Source: Bacteroidota bacterium
GTDB lineage: Bacteria; Bacteroidota; Bacteroidia; Bacteroidales; WCHB1-69
NCBI GenBank assembly: GCA_023413895.1
Contig: JAEZOU010000014.1
Coordinates: 8,066-72,065, forward strand
DNA length: 64,000 bases
Direction of reading: 5' to 3'
A program made the translations under genes and the position numbers. Below are positions 30,268 to 60,739 of this stretch, piece after piece. Under the pieces are notes generated by a model. That model was given only the letters and a program-made list of their open reading frames with translations. It ran no database searches and was not told the DNA's origin. How positions within the stretch are numbered: position 1 is the stretch's first letter; every line of letters begins with the position of its first letter.

Positions 30268-30288
30268 TTTTGTGATTTTTTGAACTCG

Positions 30289-30296
30289 CAAAAGTA
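30289..30296 (-). promoter_or_regulatory. -7 box (TActTTTG on the minus strand) for the S1 peptidase gene
   Basis: The plus strand reads CAAAAGTA. It lies 22 nt upstream of ATG 30267. Confidence 0.5.
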
Positions 30297-44503: not shown

Positions 44504-44902
44504 TTATAAATTTACTGAACCTGAAATTGCTGATGATAAATTTAGCATCTCTTCCGAAGAAAGTTCAACGCGTTTTTTGGTAAAATCAAGATCACCTGCC
44601 TTTGAAATTGGTACCAGGTGAACGTGAGTATGAGGTACATCTAAACCTATAACCGCAACACCAATCCTTGCACACTCTACATTCTGTTGTATTGCTTTAG
44701 CTATTTTCTTAGCAAACACCATCATCTCTGCCAACATTTCATCTTCCAAGTCAAAGATATAGTCATTTTGCAATTTAGGAACTACCAATGTGTGTCCCTT
44801 TGCAACAGGTGAAATATCCAAAAAAGCAAAGAATCTATCATTCTCAGCAATTTTATAACACGGAATTTCTCCTTTTATTATTCTTGTAAAAATAGTTTCC
44901 AT
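44504..44902 (-). CDS. HIT family (histidine triad) protein
   Basis: 132 aa. IFTRIIKGEIP and the histidine triad HTHVHLVP. Confidence 0.88.
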   Translation of the reverse strand: METIFTRIIKGEIPCYKIAENDRFFAFLDISPVAKGHTLVVPKLQNDYIFDLEDEMLAEMMVFAKKIAKAIQQNVECARIGVAVIGLDVPHTHVHLVPISKAGDLDFTKKRVELSSEEMLNLSSAISGSVNL

Positions 44903-44911
44903 AATATATTT

Positions 44912-45385
44912 TTATCTTGAAACCTCCAATATTTCAAATTTCATAGTTCCTGCAGGTGCTTGCACAGCAACAACATCGCCTTTTTGATTTCCTAAAAGAC
45001 CCTTTGCAATAGGAGATGTAACCGAAATTTTACCCGATTTTAAATCTGCCTCAGACTCAGGAACCAATGTATAAGTAACTACCATATTATTTGCCAAGTT
45101 TTTAATCTTGACTATTGAGTAGATTAAAATTTTTGATACATCAATTTTTGATTCATCTAATAATCTTGCATTAGCAATAACATTTTTCAATTTTGAAATC
45201 TTCAATTCCAAAATTCCTTGCGCTTCCTTAGCAGCATCGTATTCGGCATTCTCAGATAAATCTCCCTTATCTCTCGCTTCAGCTATAGCTGCTGAAATTC
45301 TAGGTCTTTCTACAGACTCTAACTGTTTAAGCTCATCTTTTAATGCTTGAAGACTTTGTTCTGAATAGTATTTAACTTCGCTCAT
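44912..45385 (-). CDS. greA: Transcription elongation factor GreA
   Basis: 157 aa. ARDKGDLSENAEYDAAKEAQ coiled-coil tip, C-terminal globular domain. Confidence 0.92.
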   Translation of the reverse strand: MSEVKYYSEQSLQALKDELKQLESVERPRISAAIAEARDKGDLSENAEYDAAKEAQGILELKISKLKNVIANARLLDESKIDVSKILIYSIVKIKNLANNMVVTYTLVPESEADLKSGKISVTSPIAKGLLGNQKGDVVAVQAPAGTMKFEILEVSR

Positions 45386-45403
45386 TTCAACTATATTTGT
45401 TTA

Positions 45404-45437
45404 TAAAAAGAAATTAAAGAGGCTTATATTAAGCCTC
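45404..45437 (-). terminator. Rho-independent terminator ending the PorV-family operon
   Basis: On the minus strand: GAGGCTT-aatat-AAGCCTC followed by TTTAATTTCTTTTT. Confidence 0.65.
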
Positions 45438-45470
45438 CTTAATTTAAATTTTCAAGAAATATTCAGAAGA

Positions 45471-46655
45471 CTATAGAGTTATTCTTAAACTCATATAGTG
45501 ATTTCCATTATATTGTTTAGTAAATCTATAAGAGTAATCAATGTACAAACGTTGATTGCCTTTTTTAGAAAGAGGAGCAGCAAATGTTACACCTGCACTT
45601 GGTCCAGCATACATGTTATCAGGACTTAATACAACATGATCCAATTCACCAGCTTCATCTTTTACAAATGCTAAATTCTCCATAGCAAAACCAGCTCTTA
45701 CCATAAAGAATTGTTTTAAACCATACTCTAAACCGATAGCGAAAATATCTCTAGAATATGCGTTTGCAGTGAATGATCCAGCTAATGTAAATCTATGCTC
45801 AGCATCGTTTCTTGTCAAACCTTCTTGTTTCAAATCTTCCTTAGACATAGTTTTGTAGTCACCACCAAAAATCAAGAAATCATAAGAAAGACCTAAACAC
45901 AACATAGAAGGAAGTTCAGATGCAGCAGAACGTTGCTCTAATGATAATTCATAATCAGTATTAACAACCTCTCCACGAATGGTAAGACCATCACCTTTGT
46001 AGCTAATAGGAAGACCAATGTTTTTCAAAGTAATACCAATCTTAAAGTTTTCGTATGCACCAGATACATATTGAATACCTGCATCGATAGCAACACCATT
46101 AGCTTTAAGGTCAGAAATACTTTCATTAACGATTTTAACAGAAACACCTCCATGGATATAACGGTTAAAAGATTTCGCATAATGAATTCCAATATAGTTC
46201 AATTTTGGAGAGAAGATAGCTGATGTACCATCTGGTTGCTCAACCGTAGTTACTGGAATATTTCCAAAACCCATATTGAATACTGAGATTCCTATTGTTC
46301 CTAAATCTGTAACAGAACCTGTTTCTTTATTCGTCTTACGCAAACCTTGCGCAACACCAAAAGAGTTAATAGAAATTCCACAATTTGAGCCTGAAAAATA
46401 TTGCGTACGTGAGAATGCAAAATCAGTACCTTTGATAAATGCGATACCTGCTACGTTGGAATACAATGCTTCAATGCCTCTGATTTCTGCAATACAAGCA
46501 CCACTCCAACCATTTGAACGTGCCCATGGGTCAATTAGCAAATGCTGAGCACCAGCTTGTCCTGAACGGTCTTTATTTCCTGCATATCCTGAAAAGGATA
46601 CTACAGTGAGACAAACAGTCAAGCAAACTAATAATGTTTTATATATATTCTTCAT
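45471..46655 (-). CDS. PorV/PorQ family outer-membrane beta-barrel (FadL-like, T9SS-associated)
   Basis: Signal peptide present. The N-terminal signature GQAGAQHLLIDPWARSNGWSGACIAEIRGIEALYSNVAGIAF matches the G.aGa..L.i...aRa...GgA......ea...NpAGla pattern I recall for PorV-family proteins. Alternating beta-strand pattern. 394 aa. Confidence 0.7.
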   Translation of the reverse strand: MKNIYKTLLVCLTVCLTVVSFSGYAGNKDRSGQAGAQHLLIDPWARSNGWSGACIAEIRGIEALYSNVAGIAFIKGTDFAFSRTQYFSGSNCGISINSFGVAQGLRKTNKETGSVTDLGTIGISVFNMGFGNIPVTTVEQPDGTSAIFSPKLNYIGIHYAKSFNRYIHGGVSVKIVNESISDLKANGVAIDAGIQYVSGAYENFKIGITLKNIGLPISYKGDGLTIRGEVVNTDYELSLEQRSAASELPSMLCLGLSYDFLIFGGDYKTMSKEDLKQEGLTRNDAEHRFTLAGSFTANAYSRDIFAIGLEYGLKQFFMVRAGFAMENLAFVKDEAGELDHVVLSPDNMYAGPSAGVTFAAPLSKKGNQRLYIDYSYRFTKQYNGNHYMSLRITL

Positions 46656-46688
46656 TTTATAATTATTTACGTTTGTTATTTAATAATC

Positions 46689-49600
46689 TTAGAATGCATT
46701 TAAGTCGGTTGGACGCATTGCACAGAAGAATTTCAAAGTTCTCTCACCAATTCCGTCTGCTTTAACGTGGATAATATACATACCACCAGCAATTGGAATA
46801 TCTGCAGAGTTCTTCAAATCCCAAGTTACGTATGTAGATTCTGCATCACCCTTAGTAAGTTTACGTACTAGTACGCCACTTACCGTATAGATAGAGATAT
46901 CACACTTCTCAGGTAAGTTTGTAATCTTAACGTAGGTTTCGAGAGCTGTGCTTTCGTAAGTAGAATATCCATAGTATGGATTAGGAACAATATTGATGTT
47001 ATCTAATACTGTTTCGTGAGTTGTTACATCATTAGTTACAGGAGCAATATTCTTAGTTGTGAAAGAATATAATGGGTAACCATTGTTTGCTGCGTATGCT
47101 GTTGCATAATCAGCATCTGCTTCTGCTTGCGCTTCATTGAAGTATCTTGAGTTAAATCTCATATATGGACGAGAAACACGCAATTTAATAGTTGCTTTAC
47201 TGCTCATCCAATAATCAGATTGGAATTGTTGTGGCATAGCAATTGAGGTCCACATTACGTTGTTAAACAATTGCATTTTCCAAAGTTTACGTTTAGCATC
47301 GTTAATATTATCAATTCCTGTAAATTGGCTGAATTTACCAACTAACCATCTACATTCATCGTATGATCCACAATCATAATATGAGTTTTGCCATACATTA
47401 TTGCCATCCATAAATCCGCCACCACCATGGTGTACACCATTTGCAGTACGATCTATTCCATCGTCATCCCAATTACGGTGCACTGCTGATGGAGCAAGTT
47501 TATAGTAGTTTGCAGATGTATTACCTGAACTACCTACAATGTAAATATAGTGTCTTCCACCCCAAGCCAAAGTAGCTTTAAATTCTGGAAGTCCGTATGC
47601 CATATATAAATCTCTGTATGAGTTATAGGTAGCTTCGTTAATCTCTTCACCTTCTGGAGAATATGCATAAACATCTGTTGGATTGAATAACATATCATCA
47701 CCATTATTAGCAGTATCTGCAGAGTTTTCTGAGAACATAATATTTAATCTCTCACCTGTTTCTACATTGATAGCATAACCTGGGAACCAACCCATACCTG
47801 TTGTACCAGAACCATCTGGGTTACCATTTTTGTCAACTGATGGAGATTTTCTTGGTTCTTGTTTATATGCACCACCGATAGATAGAGCATTGTCTTCACA
47901 AGCTTCCAATACAATACAACGTGTCCACAATTCTGGTTCGTTAGGTGTTAATACAACATCAACAGAATATAAGTTGGTCATTGTTTGGTTATAACCAGGA
48001 CAGTAAGAATTTGTATAAAGAGTCAACTTATGAGTGAAATATGCTGGAAGTGGTTCATCGTAAGAGATAGCACCATTTGCAAAATCTGGTTCATCTGGAA
48101 CAACATATTTTGCTTGTGGACCACCATCGTATGGAGACGACAATACGTATGGAGACCAAGTACCATCAATAGCACCTTCAAATTGTCCTAGTGGATCTTT
48201 CCATGCTCTTGATTTCCAACTATCATTCAAAGAACCTTTTGGTGTTTCAACAAAGAAATCTTCAACACGCCATTTAATATATTCATCTTCAACACCATCT
48301 TGAACATCTGTTGCTTCTTCCCAAGCTCCAGCAGATTGTTGACCTGCTCTAATCCAGTTAGATGGATATTCACCTTCTGTATCTTGCAATCCGCCTAACC
48401 AAGGGTGATTTTCATCTTCAAATACTATTTCAGAACCTAAGAAATCAACTTGGGCAAATTTTAGTTTATTTTGATAATCATATCCTTGAACAGCTGAATC
48501 CAAATAGGTTTTCATTTCTGTTTGGTGTACTTGGAAATCATAGTTTTCAATAGAAACAGAGATACCCAATGGAAGGAAGAGTTGTTCGTTTCTTTGTGTA
48601 ATGGATTTATCTGAAGGAATAGCACGCAAAGCATTTCCTAAACTATCTTTATAACCTAAAGCAACGATATCTTCATCTGCAACATCTTCACCAAATTCAA
48701 GAACCCAAGTAGTAGAATCTGTTACATCAGCAGCTGCATCAACAAATCTGATTTTGTAATCAAATGGTTGCAATTTCAATGGGTCAATAACTTTAATAGA
48801 AAGTGGACCAGCATTGTTTTTGTAAGTAATAGAGTTAACTTTACCGTAGGTTAAAATTTCTTTGATAGACTCATCTGTTAAATCCAAATAGTTACCACCA
48901 TTACCTTGACCTTCGATACGAGTAATCATAGGTTGTGTACCATACTCAGCTCTTAAGGTTGTACCTGTATTATGAGACAATGCAGGGTGTGGAATAGCAG
49001 AATGAGCAGCAATAGCAGTACCACCTGCAGCTTTACGACCTGCAAGGTAAACTGTTTTTTGTCCAACCAATCCGTTTGGAACATCAGGGTCAATTGAGTA
49101 AGTTTGATAATTGTTATAAGCATAAGCAATTACCATAAAGTAGTAAGTCTTATAGTTAACAAGTGTATTTGAACCTGTTGCAAATTGATCTTGGGTAATT
49201 TTCAAAGAGTGGAAAAGACCATTATTAGCACCATTTACCATCTCTGTAGCTACTGATGTTCCTAATGCATCATTATAAACCCAATTTACAAGTTGACCAA
49301 TAGGGTTACCATTTTCATCATAATTTTCAATATCACATTGAGCAACTAGACGAGCTTTATCAAGATCATCCAAATCAGCTACACTGACAGAATTGTTCTT
49401 AAGTTGATAAATTTTGTAACCTTCGAATCTATATTTACGGTCATACTCTACAACATTAAGTTGAGATTCTACTCTATCATAATAATAAACAGAATCAGGA
49501 GTAACGATAGAATCTTGAACAATAACTAATTCTTCATCTGTACGAGATTCAGGAATTTGAGCATCTTCTTCTTCGTATGTTTCGTTAAAGTTGTTGCTAA

Positions 49601-51434
49601 GTGGGTCATCGTTAGAGATGTAAAGAATCAATTCTTTGTCTAATTCACGAATAACTACATCTGGAGCATCAGGACCATCCAATACTTTGAAACAATTTTC
49701 GAAAAGTGCTTGACATTTATCGTCAGCAATCTTCAATAACTCAACAGAAGCCCAAGCACCACCTTGAGAAGCGCGTGCCCATGGAATACCTACTGTAATA
49801 TAGTTAACAGCACCAGCTTCCAATGTGAAAGGACCAGCAGATTGCATAAAACGACGGTCACCAGGAGCATTATTTTCATTTGCTTCAGTCCAACCACCAT
49901 CTGTAGTATAGTTAGGATCAACACCTTTAGTACCCCAATTACAAGGGTCAGTCAAACCTGGGAACATGAAATCACATTCAGGACCTTGGGTTTGAGATTG
50001 GTGAGCATTTTTACCATATCTCATTTTGGTACCATCACCCCAAATACCTTGCAACATATAGTAATATTCGAATGCAACGCTAGGGTCACCAATTACAGAG
50101 TTATCGTTATTATGGTAAACGAAACGGCGCATACCGAAACGTTCGTTATCAACGATTCCATCACCGAAATTCACACCATTAATAGCCATTTGGTCGTTTT
50201 CGAATGAGCTATTAAGATATCTATCACAATAACCAGGGAATGAAGCTGAATCAACAAAGAATTTTGGATTATCTCTACCATCAGGATCAATATATGGTCC
50301 TTGGAAGAAATCAACACCAACTGCAGGTGGTTGAGATCCATAGTGTTGTGTCAAACCAGTACCATCAACATCTCTACCATTGTAGCAGTAACCTAAACCA
50401 CGAGCAACATCACAACCTACCATATCATCTTCTGCAAATCCCAAATCTGGGTCAACCCACTGTGAGAAGTAACAGTTAGTAAGTTTAAAGGTAGAACGGT
50501 TTACAATTTCGTAAGAGTAGAAAGTCATATTATTGATTTCGTCATTTGTAGCAAATGCGAAAGCTTGTCCACGGATTTCCAAACCGATTGGGTCACCTTG
50601 AGTTTCAGTGTGAGGACCACCTTTATCGTTGAACACCCAGAAAAGAGTTTCGTCACCTTTCAAAACGTGGTCAGCTAAGATCATTTTATTATCAATACCT
50701 GATCTTTCTTTGAACCAAGTTCTTTCAGGAGCCCATGGCAATCTATCTTGAGCAGCCAATTCAATATTAGCAGTAGTCCAAGGGCAATATTCATTATCTA
50801 AATCGTAGTATGGATAGTCACCACCTTCAGGAGTATAAAGTAAGTTTCCGTCCACATCATTATAAGGTGCGCAATACAAAGAGTAATCGTCACCAAAAAT
50901 TTCACTTGGATTAGCAACCTCTTTCCAGTTAGAGATACTAGCTGGCATAACGTAAGTAGGGTCATTAGTCAAGTGAGCAGCAATGTGAGCTTCTACCTCA
51001 GCACGAGTAACTTTATAGTGTTTGTCGTAGTAACTACATACATTTTGTAATGTTGAAGCTCCATCAACGGTAAGAGGGCCTGTCCAAAAGTCATCACCAA
51101 CTTGACGGAAACGAACAGCAGCCAAACGCAACTGACCAGAAACGTCACGACCCCCAATCCAAAGGGCAGCGGCAAACATTGAAGTTTTACCTGAACCTCT
51201 AGGAACCTCATACTGTGCGATTTCTTTAAACCACATAGTACCATTTGTTTCCACGTAGGCTCTTACGTTATTAATTGTAAGCTCATTTGAGTTTGTGGCA
51301 GGCAAACAAGTTGCAGACTCATCCTTTTGCATCGGAGCATGCACTGTGCCAACCCATTTTCTTGCGTAAGTAGCATTTGCTGCTACCAACACAAAAAGAG
51401 TCAATAAAACTATAATTTTGCTTCTTTTATTCAT
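46689..51434 (-). CDS. Uncharacterised 1581-aa secreted protein with an atypical CTD-like C-terminal beta-sandwich
   Basis: Sec signal MNKRSKIIVLLTLFVLVAANATYA, no lipobox, and no catalytic motif I can name. The last ~100 aa read VPNPYYGY...DISIYTVSGVLVRKL...WDLKNSADIPIAGGMYIIHVKADG...KFFCAMRPTDLNAF, which is like a T9SS or FlgD-Ig domain with an extra tail. Confidence 0.6.
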   Translation of the reverse strand: MNKRSKIIVLLTLFVLVAANATYARKWVGTVHAPMQKDESATCLPATNSNELTINNVRAYVETNGTMWFKEIAQYEVPRGSGKTSMFAAALWIGGRDVSGQLRLAAVRFRQVGDDFWTGPLTVDGASTLQNVCSYYDKHYKVTRAEVEAHIAAHLTNDPTYVMPASISNWKEVANPSEIFGDDYSLYCAPYNDVDGNLLYTPEGGDYPYYDLDNEYCPWTTANIELAAQDRLPWAPERTWFKERSGIDNKMILADHVLKGDETLFWVFNDKGGPHTETQGDPIGLEIRGQAFAFATNDEINNMTFYSYEIVNRSTFKLTNCYFSQWVDPDLGFAEDDMVGCDVARGLGYCYNGRDVDGTGLTQHYGSQPPAVGVDFFQGPYIDPDGRDNPKFFVDSASFPGYCDRYLNSSFENDQMAINGVNFGDGIVDNERFGMRRFVYHNNDNSVIGDPSVAFEYYYMLQGIWGDGTKMRYGKNAHQSQTQGPECDFMFPGLTDPCNWGTKGVDPNYTTDGGWTEANENNAPGDRRFMQSAGPFTLEAGAVNYITVGIPWARASQGGAWASVELLKIADDKCQALFENCFKVLDGPDAPDVVIRELDKELILYISNDDPLSNNFNETYEEEDAQIPESRTDEELVIVQDSIVTPDSVYYYDRVESQLNVVEYDRKYRFEGYKIYQLKNNSVSVADLDDLDKARLVAQCDIENYDENGNPIGQLVNWVYNDALGTSVATEMVNGANNGLFHSLKITQDQFATGSNTLVNYKTYYFMVIAYAYNNYQTYSIDPDVPNGLVGQKTVYLAGRKAAGGTAIAAHSAIPHPALSHNTGTTLRAEYGTQPMITRIEGQGNGGNYLDLTDESIKEILTYGKVNSITYKNNAGPLSIKVIDPLKLQPFDYKIRFVDAAADVTDSTTWVLEFGEDVADEDIVALGYKDSLGNALRAIPSDKSITQRNEQLFLPLGISVSIENYDFQVHQTEMKTYLDSAVQGYDYQNKLKFAQVDFLGSEIVFEDENHPWLGGLQDTEGEYPSNWIRAGQQSAGAWEEATDVQDGVEDEYIKWRVEDFFVETPKGSLNDSWKSRAWKDPLGQFEGAIDGTWSPYVLSSPYDGGPQAKYVVPDEPDFANGAISYDEPLPAYFTHKLTLYTNSYCPGYNQTMTNLYSVDVVLTPNEPELWTRCIVLEACEDNALSIGGAYKQEPRKSPSVDKNGNPDGSGTTGMGWFPGYAINVETGERLNIMFSENSADTANNGDDMLFNPTDVYAYSPEGEEINEATYNSYRDLYMAYGLPEFKATLAWGGRHYIYIVGSSGNTSANYYKLAPSAVHRNWDDDGIDRTANGVHHGGGGFMDGNNVWQNSYYDCGSYDECRWLVGKFSQFTGIDNINDAKRKLWKMQLFNNVMWTSIAMPQQFQSDYWMSSKATIKLRVSRPYMRFNSRYFNEAQAEADADYATAYAANNGYPLYSFTTKNIAPVTNDVTTHETVLDNINIVPNPYYGYSTYESTALETYVKITNLPEKCDISIYTVSGVLVRKLTKGDAESTYVTWDLKNSADIPIAGGMYIIHVKADGIGERTLKFFCAMRPTDLNAF
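46692..46997 (-). other. CTD-like C-terminal domain of the 1581-aa protein
   Basis: See the motif string above. It departs from canonical type A CTDs by a 10-aa extension that ends in Phe. Confidence 0.45.
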
Positions 51435-51454
51435 ATCTTTTTTTTTTATTTACA

Positions 51455-54400
51455 TTAGAAACCAAATTGAACACCTAAGCTAACGCGAGTTGGCAAGCTA
51501 TAGTTGTAAGGACTTTGCATAACCATTTTGTAATAGTCGATGTAGCCCGGAACATAAACTTGTTGATTGATATTTTGTTGATATTGAGCAGCTGATAAAT
51601 AACCGTCATCTTCTGGATTTCCGGTGTAAGTATAAACGCTAAGTACGTTTTTGAAGTTGAAAAGATTCATAACATCAAGATATACCATAATGCTACCTGG
51701 TTTCATTTTGCGTTTTTCACCTTCTGTTTTAGGTTTTGCAGCTAGGTTAAGAATCCATGATTTGTAAATGCGAAGGTCACATTGGAAAATCCAAGGTTTG
51801 TTAGAACCATTAATAGATCCTGACAATTGAGATTTACCAACACCTGCAATTGTAGAGAATGGAACACTTGAACGAGAATAAGGCATACCTGATGCAGCTG
51901 AGAAACGAATAGAAGCACCTGCATTTTGGAACCAATTGATAGATTTTTTCTTACCAGTTTTCTTGCTTACCCATTCGCTAACTACTTTTGAATCATCTTC
52001 AAAGTCGAAAGATAAGTCTGCGGTAATTCTATGTCTTTGGTCGAATTCCAAGTTTGTCAAAGTTCTTAAGTTTGGTTGACCAGAAGCGATGATTGCCAAG
52101 TTAGAACCTGCTGAAGAACCTGTTCCTTTTGCAAATTGGATAGTATAAGAAGCACGAAGGTTAACAAATTTCTTTGCTCTCAAGTTGAAACCTAAAGTAA
52201 AACCTTGTACTGTACCGAAGTCGATATTATCATATGAATAATATGTGCTAGGATATGCACCTGTATAACGATATGATTGGATTTGGTCACGTTTTTCAGA
52301 ATAGTAAGCAGCGATACTAATAGCAGCATTGTTACCCACTTTTTGACGGAAACCTAATTCATAGTCAATACTTCTTTGTGGTTTCAAGTTAGGATTACTT
52401 ACTTGGTTGCCTGCACTAGAACCAAATTTTTCAATGAATAAGTAACTAATTGGATCTAATTGCAAGTTAGAAGGACGATAAGTAATAATGTTATAGTGAG
52501 CATAGAACAATGAGTTGTCTGATACTGGGAATGAGAAAGAGATACGTGGCATTACTGACCATTGTGGTTTATAATCTTCAAATGCTTTACCACTTACTTT
52601 AGAGATATTGCTTGGATCGAAAGCTTCTTTAAGGATTGGACCACCATTAGCACCTAACATAGTTGTTGGGTCAGTAACCTCTTGTCCTAAAGCATTGTAC
52701 CAAGTTGTACCGCTACGGTAACCAATAATGTTTTGAGTAGATGGGTCTAAAGTAGAACCTTTTTGATCAACATAAACTACCCAATCACCTTCTGCATTAG
52801 GAACGATTTTGTCTCCAAAAGCACCATTCAAAGAACTTACAGTATGAGCTTCACGGAAAAGGAATGGGTCTGATAATACTTGTTGGTTAGCATCGAAACG
52901 GTCAACGCGTAAACCTACGTTGAACAACATACTCTTGATAGAGAATTTATCTTGAATATACATTGCTAAATATACAGGTTCGTATGCACCAATTTCATAT
53001 CTTCTATCTACAACTTGATTTCCTTCATCATCATAAATAATGTTTCCATTATTGTCTGTTCTTGCAACACCATCAAAGAAATCAGAGATATTTGTTTTGT
53101 TACGATTAATGCTGCTACCGGTGTAGTCATATCCATAATAACTTACAAGTGGTCCACTAATACCTACCAATAACTCATCAGCTGAGAACATATTCAAATC
53201 GAATGTAGATGGATCATAACTATCAATATCCAACCAATCGCTTCCATTAGGATCTAAACCTAAAGCAATACGAAGGTTTCTATCGAAATTAGTTTGAGAA
53301 TTCAAATCCACCAATTGATTATAAGTAATTGTATCTTCAGAAAGATAGATAGGATTGTTAACATCTAATTGTAACATGTGAGAGTTTTGTTTTGCTCTCA
53401 TCAAAGTCCACAAAGAGTAAGGAGAGATACCCCAAGCGCGGTAGGTTAATTTTTCAAATTCAAAACCTAATTTCAACTCATGGTTACCCAAACTCATAGA
53501 AAGGCTTGCTTTTGCACCAATACTTTGCGTTGAAGATTTGCTATAGCTTGACATTACAGTACCTGGCATATAGAACATTCCATAAACAGTAGATGGAGAA
53601 GAACCATTCAACAATGAACCAAATTGTTGATACAACTCGTAATTGTAAGGAATATTTGATCCATACAAATCGTAGAAGAATTCCGGGGTATAATTATCCA
53701 CAAAATTTTGTGTGTACCAAGCTAAATCAGGGTTAGAAGAGGTAGATGGATCGAAAGTAATAATTGAATCATAAACAGAAGACAAAACGTTTACGTCATA
53801 AATCACAATACCATCAGGATCTGTAAGAGATTCTACTGGTAAATACATTTTTGCTTTTTTTGTTGTATATCTACCAATGTGACCATAATTAAAGAAATTA
53901 TCTTTATGTCTTTCATCTTCACTCACACCATTATTTAATGTATAATTTATATTAATATCGTACATTAAGTTTTTAAGCAAAGAGGTATCACCAGCGGTAG
54001 CAGTTTTTACTCTATGATTAATACGAGCATTCAAACGAAGTGTAGAGGCTGTTGAAATGGGGTGATTTGCACTATTGAACAAAGCTGAAGCTTGACCACC
54101 ACTACTATGACCTTTATCATATTGGTAAGAAGCACCAATAGAGATTTTCATATTATTTTTAGGTTTTCCATTAGCATCTTTACCGCCTGCAAGGAAGTCT
54201 AACTTACCTTGAACAACATAACCCCAAGAAGCTACATTTTCGCGAACTCTTTTTCTGTAGAAGTTTGTACCATCGTTGGTTAAGTATTCTGCATTATTAT
54301 AAGTTGCACCCAATTGTAATTGGTCATAACGAAGAGGATTTTTTGTCAAAGACTCAATCAAATCATCGTTTGCAACCCAAAGACCGCCTCTTGCTGGAGC

Positions 54401-55240
54401 GCCTTCTTGGCTATAATTACCTTCTGCAACAAGAAGGAAACCAACTCTTGCAGGATCGGTTTCATTTTTACTTCTCATAATAGGACCTGAGAGAGAAACA
54501 GCTGCCAAGAAATTGTTATAACCATCTAAAGATCCGCTAACCTCAGCAGAACCATGATACTCTCTTGATACACCTTTAGTGGTAATTACAGTAAAAGAGG
54601 TACCATCACCATATTCAGCTGGGATACCACCTTGGATAAGTTCAGCGCCTTCAATAGCTTGCATAGAAACACTTGAACCACCACGAACGCGCACACCATC
54701 GATAATCATTTGTTGACCATCAGGACGGTTACCACGAACGGCAGAAATACTACCATCAACACTAGATACACCTGAGAGGTTTGCCAATGCTGCTGAAATA
54801 GAACGACCCGCTTGTTTACGTACATCAGCTCCTGAAATTACGTCTGAAGATTTTGTGTTATCCGCATCAAAAATTGGTGCTTCATACACAATCTCTACAG
54901 TTTCAAGAACTGTGGAAGAACAATCCAATGTAAAGTCAATAAACTTTGTTTCTGAACCTCCAATTGGAATTCCACTTTGTTTTTGGGAAGCAAGACACAA
55001 ACCGGAACCTCCGGCAACAATGTCATAAGTTCCTGCTGAAACACCAAAAATTTGGTATTCCCCCTTGTCATCGGTGTAGGCTCCGTTCACAACACGATCT
55101 TCGGACTTCAAAACAACCATTACTCCAGAATTTGGAACTCCTTTGGCGTTTTTCACACTTCCTTTAATAGTGCTCTGAGAATAAGCAACACTACCGAAAA
55201 GGATAATTACACTAAGTGTAAAGAGTAACTTTTTAATCAT
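51455..55240 (-). CDS. Oversized TonB-dependent-receptor-like outer-membrane protein (CarboxypepD_reg-like N-terminal domain, plug and barrel), 1261 aa
   Basis: Signal peptide present. TIKGSVKNAKGVPNSGVMVVL...DDKGEYQIFGVSAGTYDI is a carboxypeptidase-regulatory-like sandwich. Plug-like region ISAVRGNRPDGQQMIIDGVRV...GGIPAEYGDG. Long alternating beta pattern. Terminal VSLGVQFGF. Confidence 0.75.
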   Translation of the reverse strand: MIKKLLFTLSVIILFGSVAYSQSTIKGSVKNAKGVPNSGVMVVLKSEDRVVNGAYTDDKGEYQIFGVSAGTYDIVAGGSGLCLASQKQSGIPIGGSETKFIDFTLDCSSTVLETVEIVYEAPIFDADNTKSSDVISGADVRKQAGRSISAALANLSGVSSVDGSISAVRGNRPDGQQMIIDGVRVRGGSSVSMQAIEGAELIQGGIPAEYGDGTSFTVITTKGVSREYHGSAEVSGSLDGYNNFLAAVSLSGPIMRSKNETDPARVGFLLVAEGNYSQEGAPARGGLWVANDDLIESLTKNPLRYDQLQLGATYNNAEYLTNDGTNFYRKRVRENVASWGYVVQGKLDFLAGGKDANGKPKNNMKISIGASYQYDKGHSSGGQASALFNSANHPISTASTLRLNARINHRVKTATAGDTSLLKNLMYDININYTLNNGVSEDERHKDNFFNYGHIGRYTTKKAKMYLPVESLTDPDGIVIYDVNVLSSVYDSIITFDPSTSSNPDLAWYTQNFVDNYTPEFFYDLYGSNIPYNYELYQQFGSLLNGSSPSTVYGMFYMPGTVMSSYSKSSTQSIGAKASLSMSLGNHELKLGFEFEKLTYRAWGISPYSLWTLMRAKQNSHMLQLDVNNPIYLSEDTITYNQLVDLNSQTNFDRNLRIALGLDPNGSDWLDIDSYDPSTFDLNMFSADELLVGISGPLVSYYGYDYTGSSINRNKTNISDFFDGVARTDNNGNIIYDDEGNQVVDRRYEIGAYEPVYLAMYIQDKFSIKSMLFNVGLRVDRFDANQQVLSDPFLFREAHTVSSLNGAFGDKIVPNAEGDWVVYVDQKGSTLDPSTQNIIGYRSGTTWYNALGQEVTDPTTMLGANGGPILKEAFDPSNISKVSGKAFEDYKPQWSVMPRISFSFPVSDNSLFYAHYNIITYRPSNLQLDPISYLFIEKFGSSAGNQVSNPNLKPQRSIDYELGFRQKVGNNAAISIAAYYSEKRDQIQSYRYTGAYPSTYYSYDNIDFGTVQGFTLGFNLRAKKFVNLRASYTIQFAKGTGSSAGSNLAIIASGQPNLRTLTNLEFDQRHRITADLSFDFEDDSKVVSEWVSKKTGKKKSINWFQNAGASIRFSAASGMPYSRSSVPFSTIAGVGKSQLSGSINGSNKPWIFQCDLRIYKSWILNLAAKPKTEGEKRKMKPGSIMVYLDVMNLFNFKNVLSVYTYTGNPEDDGYLSAAQYQQNINQQVYVPGYIDYYKMVMQSPYNYSLPTRVSLGVQFGF

Positions 55241-55295
55241 AGCCTTTTTTTTATATTAAACTTAAATTTCGCTTTTTTTCAAGGTGGTAAAAGTA

Positions 55296-55321
55296 CAAAA
55301 AATATCCACTATAAAGTGGGT
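55296..55321 (-). terminator. Weak hairpin plus T-run ending the upstream (exonuclease) transcription unit
   Basis: On the minus strand: CCACT-ttat-AGTGG (5-7 bp) followed by ATATTTTTTG. It overlaps a near-consensus -7 box (TA-ttt-TTTG, spacer one nt too long) for the TBDR-like gene. Confidence 0.35.
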
Positions 55322-55357: not shown

Positions 55358-55777
55358 CTAAAAATCAGGACGTTTCAATATTTCTGAATAAATTATTCCT
55401 CGTTTAATTTCCTCTTCATCAAAATTCAATTCAACATTTGTAAACTCCTCATCTTCTGATAGTTCAATTTTATTTTCTGTTGTAGGAATCCTGTTTTTTG
55501 CTCCTAAATTATCTTCATAACTAAAATGCCTTGCAACAGTATTGTTTTCTGAATGAAGAGGATTTACGGAAGTTTTAGAGATTTTTTGCCGCAAATTTTG
55601 ATAGGATTCTTCCTCCAAAGTTTCAATTTCTTCGGAAAAATTTTCTTCTATTTCCTCATCTTCAATTGCTTCTGATTGTTGCTTTGCACGTGCTACCGCT
55701 TTCTTTTTTTCTTCCTTGTAAGATTTATAAACAGAGAATAAAATTATTAATATAGCAATTAAAACTTCTATATTCAT
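55358..55777 (-). CDS. Small membrane-anchored, highly acidic hypothetical protein
   Basis: N-terminal transmembrane segment IEVLIAILIILFSVY, then Glu-rich low-complexity sequence, ending in GIIYSEILKRPDF. Its ATG overlaps the upstream stop (ATGA at 55774-55777). Confidence 0.55.
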   Translation of the reverse strand: MNIEVLIAILIILFSVYKSYKEEKKKAVARAKQQSEAIEDEEIEENFSEEIETLEEESYQNLRQKISKTSVNPLHSENNTVARHFSYEDNLGAKNRIPTTENKIELSEDEEFTNVELNFDEEEIKRGIIYSEILKRPDF

Positions 55778-56628: not shown

Positions 56629-58578
56629 TTAATATTTTACGATTTTCAATGTTTTTTGTCTTCTATTATCTGCTATTTTTAATAAATATACTCCTTTGGG
56701 ATAATCACTCAAATTTAAAGAAAAATGAGGTTGGTCAGTTCGACCCAAGAGCAGTTTTTTCCCACTAATATCAAAGAGTGTATAAGTTGCTGAAAGATAT
56801 GATTCGCTAGTTACACTTACATTTAGTGTAGAGTGTGTAGGATTTGGATACACAGACACAAAAACATCCTTTGTAACATCATCAATATCAACAGGTTCTA
56901 TATATCCTCCCACCACAGCTCTCACCATCGGTGAACCTTTGATGAATGGTTCTTCCCAATCTGTCATCACCTTATAAAAGAAATGCCCGCGCGCGTCAGT
57001 ATTTTGGTCAAAACCAATATTTAACTGTACATTATGGTTTTGATAAAAGCCCACATAAAAAGTATCGCCAACCGCAATTGGTTCATCAAGAAAATAGGTA
57101 ATAAAGTCGTAATAATCTTGATTATGCATAGGTTGCTGTGCTTGTTGTTCATAAATTATTTGACCAGGTTTTCCATTAGCATCATTCCAGACCATCAGCG
57201 TAAAAGGGGCGAAATTCTCATCATTTTTGACAGCATTAAACCAAATTTTTACAGCACGCAATGTATCGGGGTGAGAAGTCACAAAACGAACAGCTAAGTA
57301 AGTTGCTGGTGTTTGCATTGTTGAATAGATGGAGTAACCTGCCTCTGCTGTTCCATCATCATAGGCAAAATAATTTTCAAAAGATTGATAATGTACAATC
57401 GTGTCATTATTTTTCATTATATCGCCTGCATTACCATCTACTTCGTATACATGAATTACTGTAAAATGTGCACTTTCAGTTCCATCGGGAGCTATTGTAA
57501 AATTTATAGAGGGTTCAACTTGCAATGCTGCCGATTGAAGGCCGTTATCATAATAGGGTGCAATATTTTCGTTACTTGATGGATGATTATAAATCACATT
57601 TTGGTCATTTTTAATGACTGAATAGGTATATTTACTATTTTTAGTTACTTGAGAAAGGTTTGCCATCTTATTTTCAAAATTTTCCTTTAAATAAGAGGAT
57701 TGAAAATGAGACCAAGGCATTGTATAATAGGTGTGTAAAAACGTTGTAGTAGGAGTTACAAAAGCAATATCATCAGGATATTTATCTTCACAAGTTCTAT
57801 TTTTATTTAGACGCATATAATCGATGTGCCATTGGTCGCAATTACCATCCCAACCTTGTACACCATTTCCTTCTAAACTTGCATAATTTCTAAAACGGAA
57901 TCGAAAGTTATTCGACAAATAATTAGGATCTATAATTGGAATTAAAACCTGTTTAAAATAGGTAAGATGATTAGGATCCTCTTCTATCCATTCATCAACA
58001 CTTTCACCTTCTGTACTCCACACTTCACTCCAAACCATAGCAGTATCTTGCAAATACCCAAACTCTAAAATTAATTTATCGTATCTTTCGGGTTGATTTC
58101 CAATTCTTTCCCACTGTACGTATGGGTAAGTTGTAGAAGCACCGCCTGGTTGATAATAGAAACTGAAATAGAGAGAATCTGCGGGAGAGCAAGAGCCTAA
58201 GAGAAAGGGTTGCGATGTTAACGTATCAGCAGAAAAATTATCTGAGGATGCGTGCACATAAATTTCACCATTTTCATCTAAAGCATCAAGGGTTATAGCA
58301 CCGATAGTTGGCGGTATTACGGGATAGGTATTATTTACATAAGCCTGTCTATCAGCAAAATACTTAGGATTTGGGAAACCACAATAGTTTGAAAAATCTT
58401 CATAAAAAGGCAAAGAGACGGGTGAAACCTCATCCTTAACTCCATTATCTTTCAACAACAAAGCTTCTTTTTGAATTTTCACATCTCTCTGCAAACCTGT
58501 CAAACGCTCTTGAGCCTGAACAGATATAGCAGTAGAAAAAATAAAAGTTGTAAGAAGCAGAAAAAATTTTTTATTCAT
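56629..58578 (-). CDS. Hypothetical T9SS cargo protein, 649 aa
   Basis: Signal peptide MNKKFFLLLTTFIFSTAISVQAQ. The CTD reads VYPNPTHSTLNVSV...YPKGVYLLKIADNRRQKTLKIVKY. Confidence 0.7.
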   Translation of the reverse strand: MNKKFFLLLTTFIFSTAISVQAQERLTGLQRDVKIQKEALLLKDNGVKDEVSPVSLPFYEDFSNYCGFPNPKYFADRQAYVNNTYPVIPPTIGAITLDALDENGEIYVHASSDNFSADTLTSQPFLLGSCSPADSLYFSFYYQPGGASTTYPYVQWERIGNQPERYDKLILEFGYLQDTAMVWSEVWSTEGESVDEWIEEDPNHLTYFKQVLIPIIDPNYLSNNFRFRFRNYASLEGNGVQGWDGNCDQWHIDYMRLNKNRTCEDKYPDDIAFVTPTTTFLHTYYTMPWSHFQSSYLKENFENKMANLSQVTKNSKYTYSVIKNDQNVIYNHPSSNENIAPYYDNGLQSAALQVEPSINFTIAPDGTESAHFTVIHVYEVDGNAGDIMKNNDTIVHYQSFENYFAYDDGTAEAGYSIYSTMQTPATYLAVRFVTSHPDTLRAVKIWFNAVKNDENFAPFTLMVWNDANGKPGQIIYEQQAQQPMHNQDYYDFITYFLDEPIAVGDTFYVGFYQNHNVQLNIGFDQNTDARGHFFYKVMTDWEEPFIKGSPMVRAVVGGYIEPVDIDDVTKDVFVSVYPNPTHSTLNVSVTSESYLSATYTLFDISGKKLLLGRTDQPHFSLNLSDYPKGVYLLKIADNRRQKTLKIVKY

Positions 58579-59324: not shown

Positions 59325-60614
59325 TTAGTTCAATACTGGGAATAAATCTTTGATTTTATCAACATAATCGGTTTCTTCCCAAGCGAAGAATTTCACATTT
59401 TTAAAAATTCTCTCTTTACCATCTAAAACTTTCTTATATGTATTTTTATCTTCATAGAACACTTCTACCTCTTGTGTATAAGGGTCTCTTCCGAAGTGGC
59501 CGTATGAAGCAGTGGGTAAATAGATAGGATTTTTCAACTGGAATCTTTCGATAATATCAAAAGGTTTTAAAGAGAATATTGTTTTGATTTTTTCTGCAAT
59601 TTCTCCATCTGACATATTTACCTTTGCTGTATTGTAGGTATTGATAAAAAGGCCAACAGGTTCAGCCACACCGATTGCATAGGCCAACTGTACCAGCACC
59701 TCATCACAGATTCCTGCAGCTACCATATTTTTAGCGATATGGCGTGCTGCATACGCTGCAGATCGATCCACTTTTGAAGGATCTTTTCCTGAAAATGCGC
59801 CACCACCGTGTGCACCTCTTCCTCCGTAAGTATCAACAATAATTTTTCTTCCGGTAAGTCCTGTATCACCATGAGGTCCTCCAATTACAAACTTTCCTGT
59901 AGGGTTTACATATAATTTATACCCTTTATCAAACAATTTTTGAATATTGACAGGACATTCAGCAATTACTTGAGGAATTAGAATATTTTCAACGTCTTCA
60001 CGAATTTTGGCCAACATAGTATCATCATCAGCAAATTCATCGTGTTGAGTAGAAACAACAATTGCATCAATTTTCTCAGGAGTTTTATCATCAGCATATT
60101 GGATGGTAACTTGAGATTTTGCATCGGGGCGTAAATAGGTCATCACCTTTCCCTCGCGTCTGATTTCAGCTAACTTTTGAAGAATTATATGTGCGAGTTC
60201 CGAAGTTACAGGCATAAAATTATCCATTTCGCGACACGCATAGCCAAACATAATTCCTTGGTCTCCAGCTCCTTGATTTTCAGCCTCTTCACGTTCAACG
60301 CCTTGGTTAATATCTGAAGATTGACCATGAATAGCTGTTAGCACAGCACAAGATTTGGCATCAAATTGATAATCGCTCTTATTATACCCGATTTGGTTAA
60401 TTACTTTACGAGCAATATCATCTACTGCCACATAGCCTTTTGTTTTTACTTCACCGGCAGACACCACAAGTCCGGTAGTTACTAATGTTTCACAAGCTAC
60501 TTTTGAGTTAGGGTCATTCGCAAGAAATGCATCTAATAATGCATCTGAAATTTGATCACTTACCTTATCCGGGTGTCCTTCGGAAACAGATTCTGATGTA
60601 AATAAATAACTCAT
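59325..60614 (-). CDS. metK: S-adenosylmethionine synthetase
   Basis: [52 protein letters not shown]. Confidence 0.96.
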
Positions 60615-60739
60615 CTTTACAAAATTAAAACGTTAATAATTAAACTGTTGCCGTAAAAAATAGGAGGGATTATCAATGGTTTAGCATTTTTTCAAGTGGT
60701 TGCAATCATAACAAATCTTTCCACATTTTTTTGGCTCGG

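Follow-up and report, generated by a model that had tools for sequence, protein, structure and literature searches.

The window, a 64,000-nucleotide stretch of Bacteroidota DNA, carries on its minus strand three closely spaced genes, which encode a TonB-dependent transporter (gene 1, 51455..55240, 1261 aa), a secreted protein without annotated domain (gene 2, 46689..51434, 1581 aa) and a PorV/PorQ-family outer-membrane barrel (gene 3, 45471..46655, 394 aa). The intergenic gaps are 20 nt (gene 1/gene 2) and 33 nt (gene 2/gene 3). Coordinates, lengths, strand and spacing all reproduce the original prediction for this DNA, and the hairpin/T-run sites that it had placed on both sides of the triad were found as well. 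The site 3' of gene 3 is a terminator-like element (45401..45445, minus strand) consisting of a hairpin with a 16-bp stem (45445-45411(-)) followed by CTTTTTATAA. At the other end, between a small upstream open reading frame (g0) and gene 1, lies the short hairpin CCACTTTATAGTGG with a T-run (55296..55319, minus strand), in which a weak 5-bp stem (55319-55306(-)) is followed by ATATTTTTTG. In the region as a whole, 8 terminator-like sites compare with 5.6 +/- 2.5 by chance; the count shows no excess, and the sites are informative by position only.

A promoter-like TACTTTTACC box (55286..55295, minus strand) is located 55 nt 5' of the gene 1 ATG and resembles TAnnTTTG, the -7 promoter consensus of Bacteroidota. 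Of 70 loci, 40 contain the related pattern TAnnTTTACC in the 200 nt preceding gene 1, at a median distance of 57 nt from the ATG, whereas it occurs in 1.5% of random 200-nt windows. The small open reading frame g0 (55358..55777, minus strand, 139 aa), next to gene 1 on its upstream side, is a probable fourth conserved gene; its product matches no Pfam family and consists of a transmembrane helix at the N-terminus, a low-complexity linker of acidic character and a C-terminus that is conserved (...GIIYSEILKRPDF), and a protein of this type directly precedes gene 1 in 46 of 69 loci, usually at a spacing of 100-117 nt. On the other side of the triad, Pfam matches identify greA (44912-45385, minus strand) and a HIT-family gene (44504-44902, minus strand), which are downstream context and not a proven part of the unit; greA is found downstream of gene 3 in 71 of 79 loci and the HIT gene in 68 of 79. 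The conserved g0, the conserved greA-HIT neighbours and the very wide distribution of the module go beyond what had been noted originally.

The original prediction had treated the three genes as one unit, and comparison across genomes bears this out. Contig ends permitting, the order gene 1-gene 2-gene 3 is retained in 77 of 79 species-level loci, at 40-65% identity (lowest about 40%), and it also occurs in a Flavobacteriales metagenome-assembled genome and in L085, in both of which the greA-HIT context recurs. Hundreds of Bacteroidota species have the three genes side by side, far beyond what chance would produce. An explanation by which the three genes are unrelated and became neighbours by chance or through local genome history is effectively refuted by the persistence of their arrangement at identities as low as about 40% and in different taxonomic orders. 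In about a third of the loci, a Reg_prop/Y_Y_Y sensor kinase and a LytTR regulator are encoded upstream; this pair is absent from the window. Co-variation of evolutionary distances, a mirror-tree approach and as such weak in any case, links the N-terminal domain of gene 2 to gene 1 (partial r 0.76, controlled for GreA and HIT) more than to gene 3 (0.59; bootstrap interval of the difference 0.05-0.30). The C-terminal domain (CTD) of gene 2 tracks gene 3 (0.66) slightly more than it tracks the other gene 2 domains, a marginal effect (intervals -0.01 to 0.23 and -0.05 to 0.18).

Gene 1 has the TonB-dependent-receptor architecture originally attributed to it. Behind a signal peptide, the Pfam models for CarboxypepD_reg (PF13620; aa 24-105, 41 bits, cut-off 32.3), plug (PF07715; aa 127-214, 33.5 bits, cut-off 23.9) and TonB_dep_Rec_b-barrel (PF00593; aa 621-1050, 53 bits, cut-off 27) are all matched above cut-off; the barrel is oversized and divergent, and the protein ends in a terminal Phe (...GVQFGF). 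Its N-terminal domain is of the CarboxypepD_reg/DUF4480 type, as in SusC-type receptors. Ahead of the plug lies a conserved stretch resembling a TonB box (..L...EVV.YK.P..; LETVEIVYEAP in the window), which may serve as such. When the PDB is searched with a profile built from 28 orthologues, the Cir and FepA plugs are matched (E 2e-11 to 1e-8), as are isolated SusC-type N-terminal domains (6ytc, 9hfj), but no SusC-like barrel. Among NCBIfam models (E<=0.01), no SusC/RagA model was matched, only three siderophore-receptor models weakly (20-24 bits). The missing SusD-like lipoprotein gene remarked upon originally is indeed not there, as the downstream gene has neither a SusD Pfam domain nor a lipobox. 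Membership of gene 1 in the SusC/RagA family was rejected for lack of both a family-model match and a SusD neighbour.

Gene 2 carries a Sec-type signal, has no lipobox and contains no assignable motif, in line with its first description. No Pfam family was matched, and six diverse members of its family also remained without a match at E<=0.5, save for a weak FlgD_ig match on the tail; neither the single sequence nor a profile has a relative among PDB sequences. The names of more than 5,500 homologues go no further than "hypothetical" or "T9SS sorting domain-containing". Conservation within the protein is highest in the N-terminal domain (aa 36-640; 49515..51329, minus strand), which is rich in invariant Asp, Cys, Gly and aromatic residues and has a median identity to orthologues of 55%, the same as the HIT protein; its family comprises 6,701 representatives at 50% clustering (E<=1e-3), with members typically of 1,300-1,600 aa. 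AlphaFold2 modelled the two halves of gene 2 with confidence (pLDDT 85/pTM 0.82 and pLDDT 87.5/pTM 0.84). With the N-terminal half, Foldseek yielded weak matches only (TM<=0.18), to the carbohydrate-active enzymes GH94, GH116 and dextran dextrinase; in our reading, these fall on the beta-sandwich N-domains of the enzymes, because the model has a low helix content. Matches to known structures are confined to the last ~90 residues, where they are type IX secretion system (T9SS) C-terminal domains (PorZ, NucA, PorU). Checked against PorU, PorZ, SprA and known enzyme families by Pfam, PDB and Foldseek searches, gene 2 belongs to none of them. The PorU identity was rejected because no C25 peptidase match was found in Pfam (six members, E<=0.5) and Foldseek aligns the 90-residue CTD alone. 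PorZ was rejected as well: only 127 PorZ columns align, which, judging from the neighbouring CTD-only matches, presumably represent the CTD region, and no other propeller structure is among the 50 matches listed for either half.

The gene 2 tail had been likened to a T9SS or FlgD-Ig sorting domain with an additional extension, and both elements were recovered. The CTD (aa ~1481-1570; 46725..46994, minus strand) is modelled with the seven-stranded beta-sandwich fold of type-A-like T9SS CTDs; Foldseek matches it best to PorZ (5m11, E 1e-5), with further matches to PorU (6za2) and to the CTD of translocon-bound NucA (8glk_D, TM on target 0.69). At the sequence level, PNP, G.Y and K1568 are invariant and align with the CTDs of three canonical type A cargo proteins encoded in the same window, whose presence implies that the organism has a T9SS. 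The role of the near-terminal Lys in type A CTDs has been described (PMC10994853). The gene 2 tail scores 18.3 bits against TIGR04183, under the cut-off of 23, with a weak FlgD_ig match and no match to the PF18962 sorting domain in Pfam; many homologues carry the NCBI name "T9SS type A sorting domain". With a median orthologue identity of 58%, unusually high for a CTD, this domain compares with 55% for the HIT protein and 31-35% for the adjacent regions of gene 2, and such slow evolution is expected of a permanent binding module rather than of a disposable signal.

The CTD is followed by a family-specific C-terminal tail (aa 1571-1581, CAMRPTDLNAF; 46692..46724, minus strand), so that the protein ends in ...KFFCAMRPTDLNAF; this tail is not present on the canonical CTDs in the alignment. 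Across the family, the pattern is …KWFG.LRP.DLN.F, with R1574, P1575 and D1577 invariant and L1578, N1579 and F1581 nearly so. Of 353 long family members, 287 fit a strict form of it, and conservative variants are seen in most of the remainder. None of the four tail-less copies adjoins a gene 3, and one of them has a canonical Por_Secre_tail, with neither gene 1 nor gene 3 nearby. In L086, a tandem pair of tail-bearing paralogues has no gene 1 or gene 3 within 8 kb, and four other such paralogues, located between greA and the HIT gene, likewise have no gene 3 nearby; the link between tail and gene 3 is therefore not one-to-one.

Gene 3 was originally assigned to the PorV family, and it passes the corresponding model (NF033709 PorV_fam) with 99.6 bits at a cut-off of 90. 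Among the equivalog models, it scores best with PorQ (NF033711; 42.8 bits, cut-off 220), followed by PorV (NF033710; 32.5 bits, cut-off 250) and PorV2 (28.3 bits, cut-off 325); since these values are far below the cut-offs, PorV proper and PorQ proper were both rejected as identities. The closest solved relative is PorV of Flavobacterium johnsoniae (6h3i_F, E 1e-15 with a profile of 28 orthologues), with the FadL-type TodX next. A PorP/SprF barrel paired with a type B CTD cargo was discarded too, because neither model is matched by the window proteins in Pfam or NCBIfam; a faint PF11751 match occurs on one orthologue only.

Taken individually, these features have parallels in several known systems. 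In the PorZ-PorQ and PorU-PorV pairs of Porphyromonas gingivalis, a surface protein keeps its CTD and is held by a PorV-family barrel (PMC12365241, PMC10202324), an arrangement that genes 2 and 3 may share: gene 3 passes the PorV/PorQ family model, and the gene 2 CTD is structurally nearest that of PorZ. Unlike those pairs, gene 2 has neither the C25 peptidase domain of PorU nor the beta-propellers of PorZ, gene 3 is not a PorV or PorQ equivalog, the CTD bears an extra conserved tail, and both genes are encoded beside a TonB-dependent transporter. In the pairing of type B CTD cargo with PorP/SprF, exemplified by SprB-SprF of F. johnsoniae, the cargo gene likewise adjoins a dedicated barrel gene, and the PorP/SprF-like barrel confers cargo specificity and surface anchoring (PMC12618676); here, however, the CTD is type-A-like and the barrel belongs to the PorV/PorQ family. 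With SusC/SusD (RagA/RagB) and utilisomes, the triad shares a transporter with a SusC-type N-terminal domain and an immediately adjacent gene for a surface-exposed partner, whereas gene 1 lacks the SusC/RagA match and the partner is, instead of a SusD lipoprotein, a T9SS-type protein of 1,300-1,600 aa with its own barrel anchor. Polysaccharide utilisation loci are variable, in contrast to the fixed core locus beside greA.

Being real, conserved in hundreds of species and without described counterpart, the triad probably encodes an unstudied cell-surface complex. The working model, to which we assign a probability of roughly 0.45, is a conserved outer-membrane complex in which gene 2 would be exported by the T9SS, anchored to gene 3 via its retained CTD and work together with the transporter gene 1. 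In this scheme, Sec would take gene 2 across the inner membrane, and the general T9SS of the organism, with the CTD as the signal, would take it across the outer one. Unlike in ordinary type A cargo, the CTD would then be retained, as no cleavage by PorU is predicted; together with the tail, it would bind non-covalently to gene 3 and thus tether the giant protein to the surface, possibly in the way PorQ holds PorZ and PorV holds PorU. Gene 2 would most likely be the extracellular capture or cap component and pass a ligand to gene 1, a SusC-type transporter without SusD, which may import it powered by TonB. The ligand is possibly a glycan, as hinted at by the weak carbohydrate-enzyme matches of the N-terminal half and by the regulator pair found at other loci. 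Upstream, g0, presumably the gene of a small inner-membrane protein, would be part of the conserved neighbourhood. Several points stand against this model: the gene 2 CTD of the window stays under the TIGR04183 cut-off, tail-bearing paralogues occur away from any gene 3, the co-variation of CTD and gene 3 is marginal, the hints of a glycan are weak, and a gene order fixed beside greA across orders resembles a core envelope function more than a nutrient role. More tentatively, the triad may represent a hitherto unrecognised, phylum-wide class of outer-membrane machine, in which the T9SS installs the giant, Pfam-less gene 2 on its own PorV-family anchor via the retained CTD and its tail, and gene 2 does the extracellular work of a TonB-dependent transporter that lacks SusD; fixed beside greA in many Bacteroidia, the module would then serve a core envelope function rather than constitute an accessory nutrient locus.

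The dedicated module postulated originally holds up in part. A dedicated cargo with a cognate PorV-like barrel is a reasonable reading, given that gene 3 is a family-level, non-equivalog member, that gene 2 has a T9SS-type CTD with its own tail, and that the unit is conserved, whereas a private T9SS branch is not supported, as no translocon or motor genes are found here. A similar idea has already been put forward for PorZ with PorQ and for type B CTDs with PorP (PMC10202324, PMC12365241, PMC12618676).

An unlikely alternative is that the triad is a late-stage accessory or attachment unit of the T9SS, functionally analogous to PorF-PorZ-PorQ of P. gingivalis, with gene 1 as a PorF-like barrel of TonB type, gene 3 as the PorQ-like one and gene 2 as a surface protein that retains its CTD and handles an anchor glycolipid or processes other cargo. 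P. gingivalis has the same three protein types, and its porQ, porZ and porF mutants are alike in forming beige colonies and losing about 90% of gingipain activity; PorF (PG0534), by its description a TonB-dependent-receptor-like T9SS component, resembles gene 1 as a plug-containing barrel tied to T9SS surface steps (PMC12704123). The best equivalog score of gene 3 (PorQ), the best structural match of gene 2 (the PorZ CTD) and the core-like character of the module, fixed beside greA and very widely distributed, point in the same direction. Against such a role, gene 2 shows no PorZ-like propellers, just 127 columns of PorZ being aligned by Foldseek, genes 1 and 3 score far under every equivalog cut-off, and the additional gene 2 paralogues, one with an ordinary CTD, suit cargo better than machinery. 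The triad is also not known from the model organisms in which the T9SS parts were defined, which likewise argues against this role, and in P. gingivalis porF is not known to adjoin porZ or porQ.

Adhesins and S-layer proteins are frequent among large T9SS cargo (SprB, RemA, TfsA/B), and genes 2 and 3 might accordingly make up an adhesin, a coat or a motility structure on the cell surface, with gene 1 merely co-transcribed and uncoupled from them both physically and functionally. Anchoring by a cognate barrel has indeed been described for type B CTD adhesins (PMC12618676), but adhesins and S-layers usually evolve fast, whereas the N-terminal domain of gene 2 is conserved like housekeeping proteins, co-varies with gene 1 and has gene 1 beside it in 77 of 79 loci, which makes this reading rather improbable. 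Even less probable is a T9SS-independent route, in which gene 1 would export gene 2 in the manner of Oar and gene 3 would act as a channel of the FadL type for a hydrophobic ligand. Oar of Myxococcus also carries a CarboxypepD_reg-type N-terminal domain, the gene 2 CTD misses the TIGR04183 cut-off, and the PorV family sits within the FadL superfamily. Like gene 1 in the working model, Oar is a TonB-dependent transporter functionally linked to a secreted protein, being needed for secretion of the protease PopC (PMC6434023). Oar, however, comes from another phylum and lacks a PorV-like partner, whereas gene 2 has the fold and motifs of a T9SS-type CTD; moreover, one member of the family, bearing a canonical T9SS tail, occurs alone with no gene 1, tail-bearing paralogues are found without gene 1 close by, and the organism has other T9SS cargo.

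If the working model of a T9SS-installed, barrel-anchored partner of a TonB-dependent transporter is true, the triad would add a third type of cargo-specific PorV-family anchor to the PorV-PorU/PorQ-PorZ and PorP-type B pairs, and type IX secretion would have a direct link to how a TonB-dependent transporter complex is assembled. The conserved CTD and tail would provide a testable handle on how some T9SS substrates avoid losing the CTD and remain attached to a barrel, and the parallel with PorF-PorZ-PorQ might also inform the role of PorF. Finally, a role would be found for a protein family that ranks among the largest without annotation in the Bacteroidota, has no Pfam domain and spans, for its N-terminal domain, 6,701 clusters at 50% identity.

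On the minus strand of the window, genes for a TonB-dependent transporter (gene 1; 51455-55240, 1261 aa), a giant secreted protein (gene 2; 46689-51434, 1581 aa) and a PorV/PorQ-family barrel (gene 3; 45471-46655, 394 aa) follow each other with gaps of 20 nt and 33 nt, respectively; re-reading of the window reproduced the three ORFs and their gaps exactly as originally described. The window itself derives from the MAG (metagenome-assembled genome) of an uncultured Bacteroidales bacterium (locus L002, 99% identity). Downstream lie greA and a HIT-family gene (44504-45385, minus strand), which are conserved 3' of gene 3. Among 79 related loci, the order gene 1-gene 2-gene 3 is retained in 77, the remaining two being interrupted by contig ends; greA is present downstream in 71 and the HIT-family gene in 68. 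The complete five-gene order recurs in a Flavobacteriales MAG and in a contig labelled KSB1, the flanks of which resemble Bacteroidota loci. The synteny of the triad across relatives, which the original prediction had singled out for checking, is thus borne out, and it rules out a chance adjacency of the three genes. Conservation of gene order to this depth is unusual for Bacteroidota. The gene 2 family itself is large: a search with its N-domain (aa 36-640) retrieved, among clusters formed at 50% identity, 6,701 at E<=1e-3 and 1,766 at E<=1e-30. In a one-genome-per-species collection, at least 600 stretches matched the search pattern, and 592 of the 600 listed encode a relative of gene 2.

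Hairpins resembling terminators flank the triad, a strong one 3' of gene 3 (45445-45411, minus strand; 16-bp stem and T-run) and a weak one upstream of gene 1 (55319-55306, minus strand; 5-bp stem and ATATTTTTTG). The region contains eight such sites compared to 5.6 +/- 2.5 expected; this total is not above chance and, therefore, only the positions of the sites are informative. Between gene 1 and the next ORF upstream, a TAnnTTTACC box (55295-55286, minus strand) resembles the -7 promoter consensus of Bacteroidota, TAnnTTTG. Of 70 loci, 40 have this box in front of gene 1, compared to 1.5% of random windows; its median distance from the gene 1 ATG is 57 nt, and close to this ATG many of the related loci L001-L077 carry a conserved CTAACATAAAAT-like leader. 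Box and leader probably constitute the operon promoter and 5' leader; as the box is conserved and promoter-like, it supports a transcription start for all three genes at the upstream boundary that had been proposed for the operon. An Rfam scan matched no riboswitch or other RNA in front of gene 1; it returned nothing but a tRNA and, at metK, a SAM-II element. The latter is a long-loop SAM-II riboswitch aptamer (60671-60730, minus strand; 60 bits, gathering score 44) preceding the S-adenosylmethionine synthetase gene (59325-60614). Elsewhere in the window, a 1361-aa protein (27-4112, plus strand) carries duplicated acyl-CoA dehydratase activase / benzoyl-CoA reductase-like ATPase domains.

The ORF upstream of the box, g0 (55358-55777, minus strand; 139 aa), encodes a transmembrane helix at the N-terminus, followed by an acidic linker of low complexity and a conserved C-terminus, GIIYSEILKRPDF, and matched no Pfam family. 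In 46 of 69 related loci, a small protein of this type is encoded immediately before gene 1; g0 is probably a fourth conserved gene of the neighbourhood, and a Lys/Arg-rich stretch past its helix suggests a largely cytoplasmic protein. In about one third of the loci, a sensor histidine kinase (Reg_prop beta-propellers, Y_Y_Y and a LytS-type kinase domain) and a LytTR response regulator are encoded upstream on the same strand (e.g., L034:22-3219, L028:2662-3477 and L085:1-3550, the last on the KSB1-labelled contig, besides about 24 further loci); the window lacks this pair.

Gene 1 starts with a signal peptide, ends on Phe and contains, all above curated cut-offs, the Pfam domains CarboxypepD_reg (aa 24-105), Plug (aa 127-214) and TonB-dependent receptor barrel (aa 621-1050). 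A TonB-box-like stretch, LETVEIVYEAP, is conserved among its orthologues. When 28 orthologues were combined into a profile, the plugs of Cir and FepA were matched, as were N-terminal domains of SusC-type receptors solved in isolation; the profile matched no SusC-like barrel, the NCBIfam scan did not match SusC/RagA, and no SusD gene follows. With ~1,050 residues beyond the plug, the barrel is oversized. Taken together, the domain, profile and NCBIfam results identify gene 1, at the level of sequence, as a TonB-dependent transporter with a SusC-like N-terminal architecture and a divergent, oversized barrel.

With 99.6 bits, gene 3 exceeds the cut-off of the PorV/PorQ family model (90) and stays far below the cut-offs of 220-325 of the equivalog models for PorQ (42.8 bits), PorV (32.5) and PorV2 (28.3). 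The best solved relative of its orthologue profile is F. johnsoniae PorV (E 1e-15), the next being TodX, which is of the FadL type. By these scores, gene 3 is classified as a member of the PorV/PorQ family that is neither the general shuttle PorV nor PorQ. BamG, the FadL-like component of the Bacteroidota BAM complex, where it is bound to BamA and BamH (PMC12578637), was considered as a counterpart and set aside, being part of that different complex; nothing else at the locus points to BAM.

Gene 2 carries a Sec signal but lacks a lipobox. Neither the protein alone nor a 44-sequence profile found a relative among PDB sequences, and a Pfam scan of six diverse family members, at E<=0.5, returned no family, only a weak FlgD_ig match and, in one of them, a BNR/YCF48 insertion. 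This insertion, an Asp-box propeller-like domain, lies in the poorly conserved middle region of P0379 (1687 aa, Bacteroidia MAG), an indication that inserted domains are tolerated there. None of the relatives listed bears a functional name: the 360 nearest, drawn from searches with three parts of the family, are all named generically, as are ten distant clusters except for one termed "YCF48-related" after its BNR-type insertion. A 147-aa TTG-start ORF antisense within gene 2 (49764-50207, plus strand) is most likely spurious. AlphaFold2 models of residues 30-830 (pLDDT 85, pTM 0.82) and 800-1581 (pLDDT 87.5, pTM 0.84) are both confident. In Foldseek searches against the PDB, the N-terminal half gave weak matches alone (TM<=0.18), to carbohydrate-active enzymes; since the model has few helices, these probably reflect the beta-sandwich N-domains of such enzymes, and they are not taken as evidence for an enzyme activity. 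In the C-terminal half, the last ~90 residues match the C-terminal domains (CTDs) of type IX secretion system (T9SS) proteins, PorZ (best, E 1e-5), translocon-bound NucA (TM on target 0.69) and PorU, and nothing outside this domain was matched. Thus, the description of gene 2 as a protein devoid of assignable motifs agrees with the empty Pfam and PDB sequence searches, and its T9SS-like end is supported by the CTD fold, although TIGR04183 scores only 18.3 bits, under its cut-off of 23.

Many gene 2 homologues carry the NCBI name "T9SS type A sorting domain-containing", and alignment of the gene 2 CTD with three canonical type A CTDs of the window shows that the PNP, G.Y and near-terminal Lys positions are kept. 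The tail beyond it (aa 1571-1581), CAMRPTDLNAF, is an addition absent from these three. In the family alignment, R1574, P1575 and D1577 are invariant, and L1578, N1579 and F1581 nearly so; 287 of 353 long family members possess the tail by a strict pattern and most others possess conservative variants, marking it as the sequence signature of the family. Type A CTDs are weakly conserved beyond their motifs. The CTD surface touching the translocon is also poorly conserved (PMC10994853). The gene 2 CTD has a median identity to its orthologues of 58%, comparable to GreA (64%) and the HIT-family protein (55%), the values for the other parts being 55% (N-domain), 35% (middle region) and 31% (C-proximal region), and those for gene 3 and gene 1 40% and 37%. 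A rate as slow as that of housekeeping proteins is unexpected for a disposable secretion signal, which argues that CTD and tail may form a permanent interaction module.

The distribution of the tail agrees with an association between tail and gene 3, though not decisively. Directly followed by gene 3 are 78 tail-bearing copies, compared to none of the four tail-less family copies in the related loci: second copies in L009 (L009:14049-18068) and in L082/L083 (L082:7001-11110), and a stand-alone relative (L081:3992-8113) that has a canonical Por_Secre_tail and neither gene 1 nor gene 3 nearby. Four tail-bearing paralogues are situated between greA and the HIT-family gene of the same locus (L018, L022, L026, L037), and tandem tail-bearing paralogues (L086:8001-16403) have no gene 1 or gene 3 within 8 kb. 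The association is thus not one-to-one, but it would fit several copies sharing a single gene 3. In a mirror-tree analysis of 59 loci, controlled for GreA and HIT distances, the gene 2 N-domain tracks gene 1 (partial r 0.76) more closely than gene 3 (0.59; bootstrap interval of the difference 0.05-0.30), a suggestive co-variation. That of the CTD with gene 3 (0.66), slightly above that of the CTD with the other gene 2 domains, is marginal (interval -0.01 to 0.23).

In the best-supported reading, the three components would act together in the following manner. Canonical T9SS type A sorting domains (42-56 bits) are present in three proteins of the window (6313-13890, 28618-30291 and 56629-58578, all on the minus strand), and the organism therefore has a T9SS, by which gene 2 would be exported as cargo; one of the three, 2525 aa long, also has a choice-of-anchor J domain. 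Gene 2 would then retain its CTD, which together with the tail may anchor it to its cognate barrel, gene 3, in parallel to the anchoring of PorZ to PorQ and of PorU to PorV (PMC12365241); cognate PorV-like barrels have been proposed to shield CTDs from cleavage (reviewed in PMC10202324). On the cell surface, gene 2 would serve as the extracellular partner of gene 1 in TonB-dependent import, a role suggested by the SusD-less SusC-type transporter being encoded immediately upstream, near-universally retained and co-varying with the gene 2 N-domain. A surface adhesin or coat, with no coupling to the transporter, is a less likely role for gene 2, as is export of gene 2 by gene 1 in an Oar-like manner, for which there is a precedent (PMC6434023). 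The N-terminal Foldseek matches and the Reg_prop/LytTR pair of related loci are weak hints at a glycan ligand.

The main alternative to such an import machine is that the triad represents an analogue of PorF-PorZ-PorQ, a module for late-stage T9SS attachment: the same three protein types occur in P. gingivalis, where mutants of all three share one phenotype (PMC12704123). We regard a distinct machine as a tentative reading, with a probability of roughly 0.35. No description of the triad was found in the literature on PorV-like and TonB-dependent operons, PorV2 and the PorV/PorQ family. The anchoring proposed here follows a known principle, according to which a T9SS substrate is held by its cognate PorV-like barrel; what is undescribed in the triad is the gene 2 family, its tail, a barrel that is neither PorV nor PorQ, the proposed coupling to a TonB-dependent transporter and the fixed position in the core genome.
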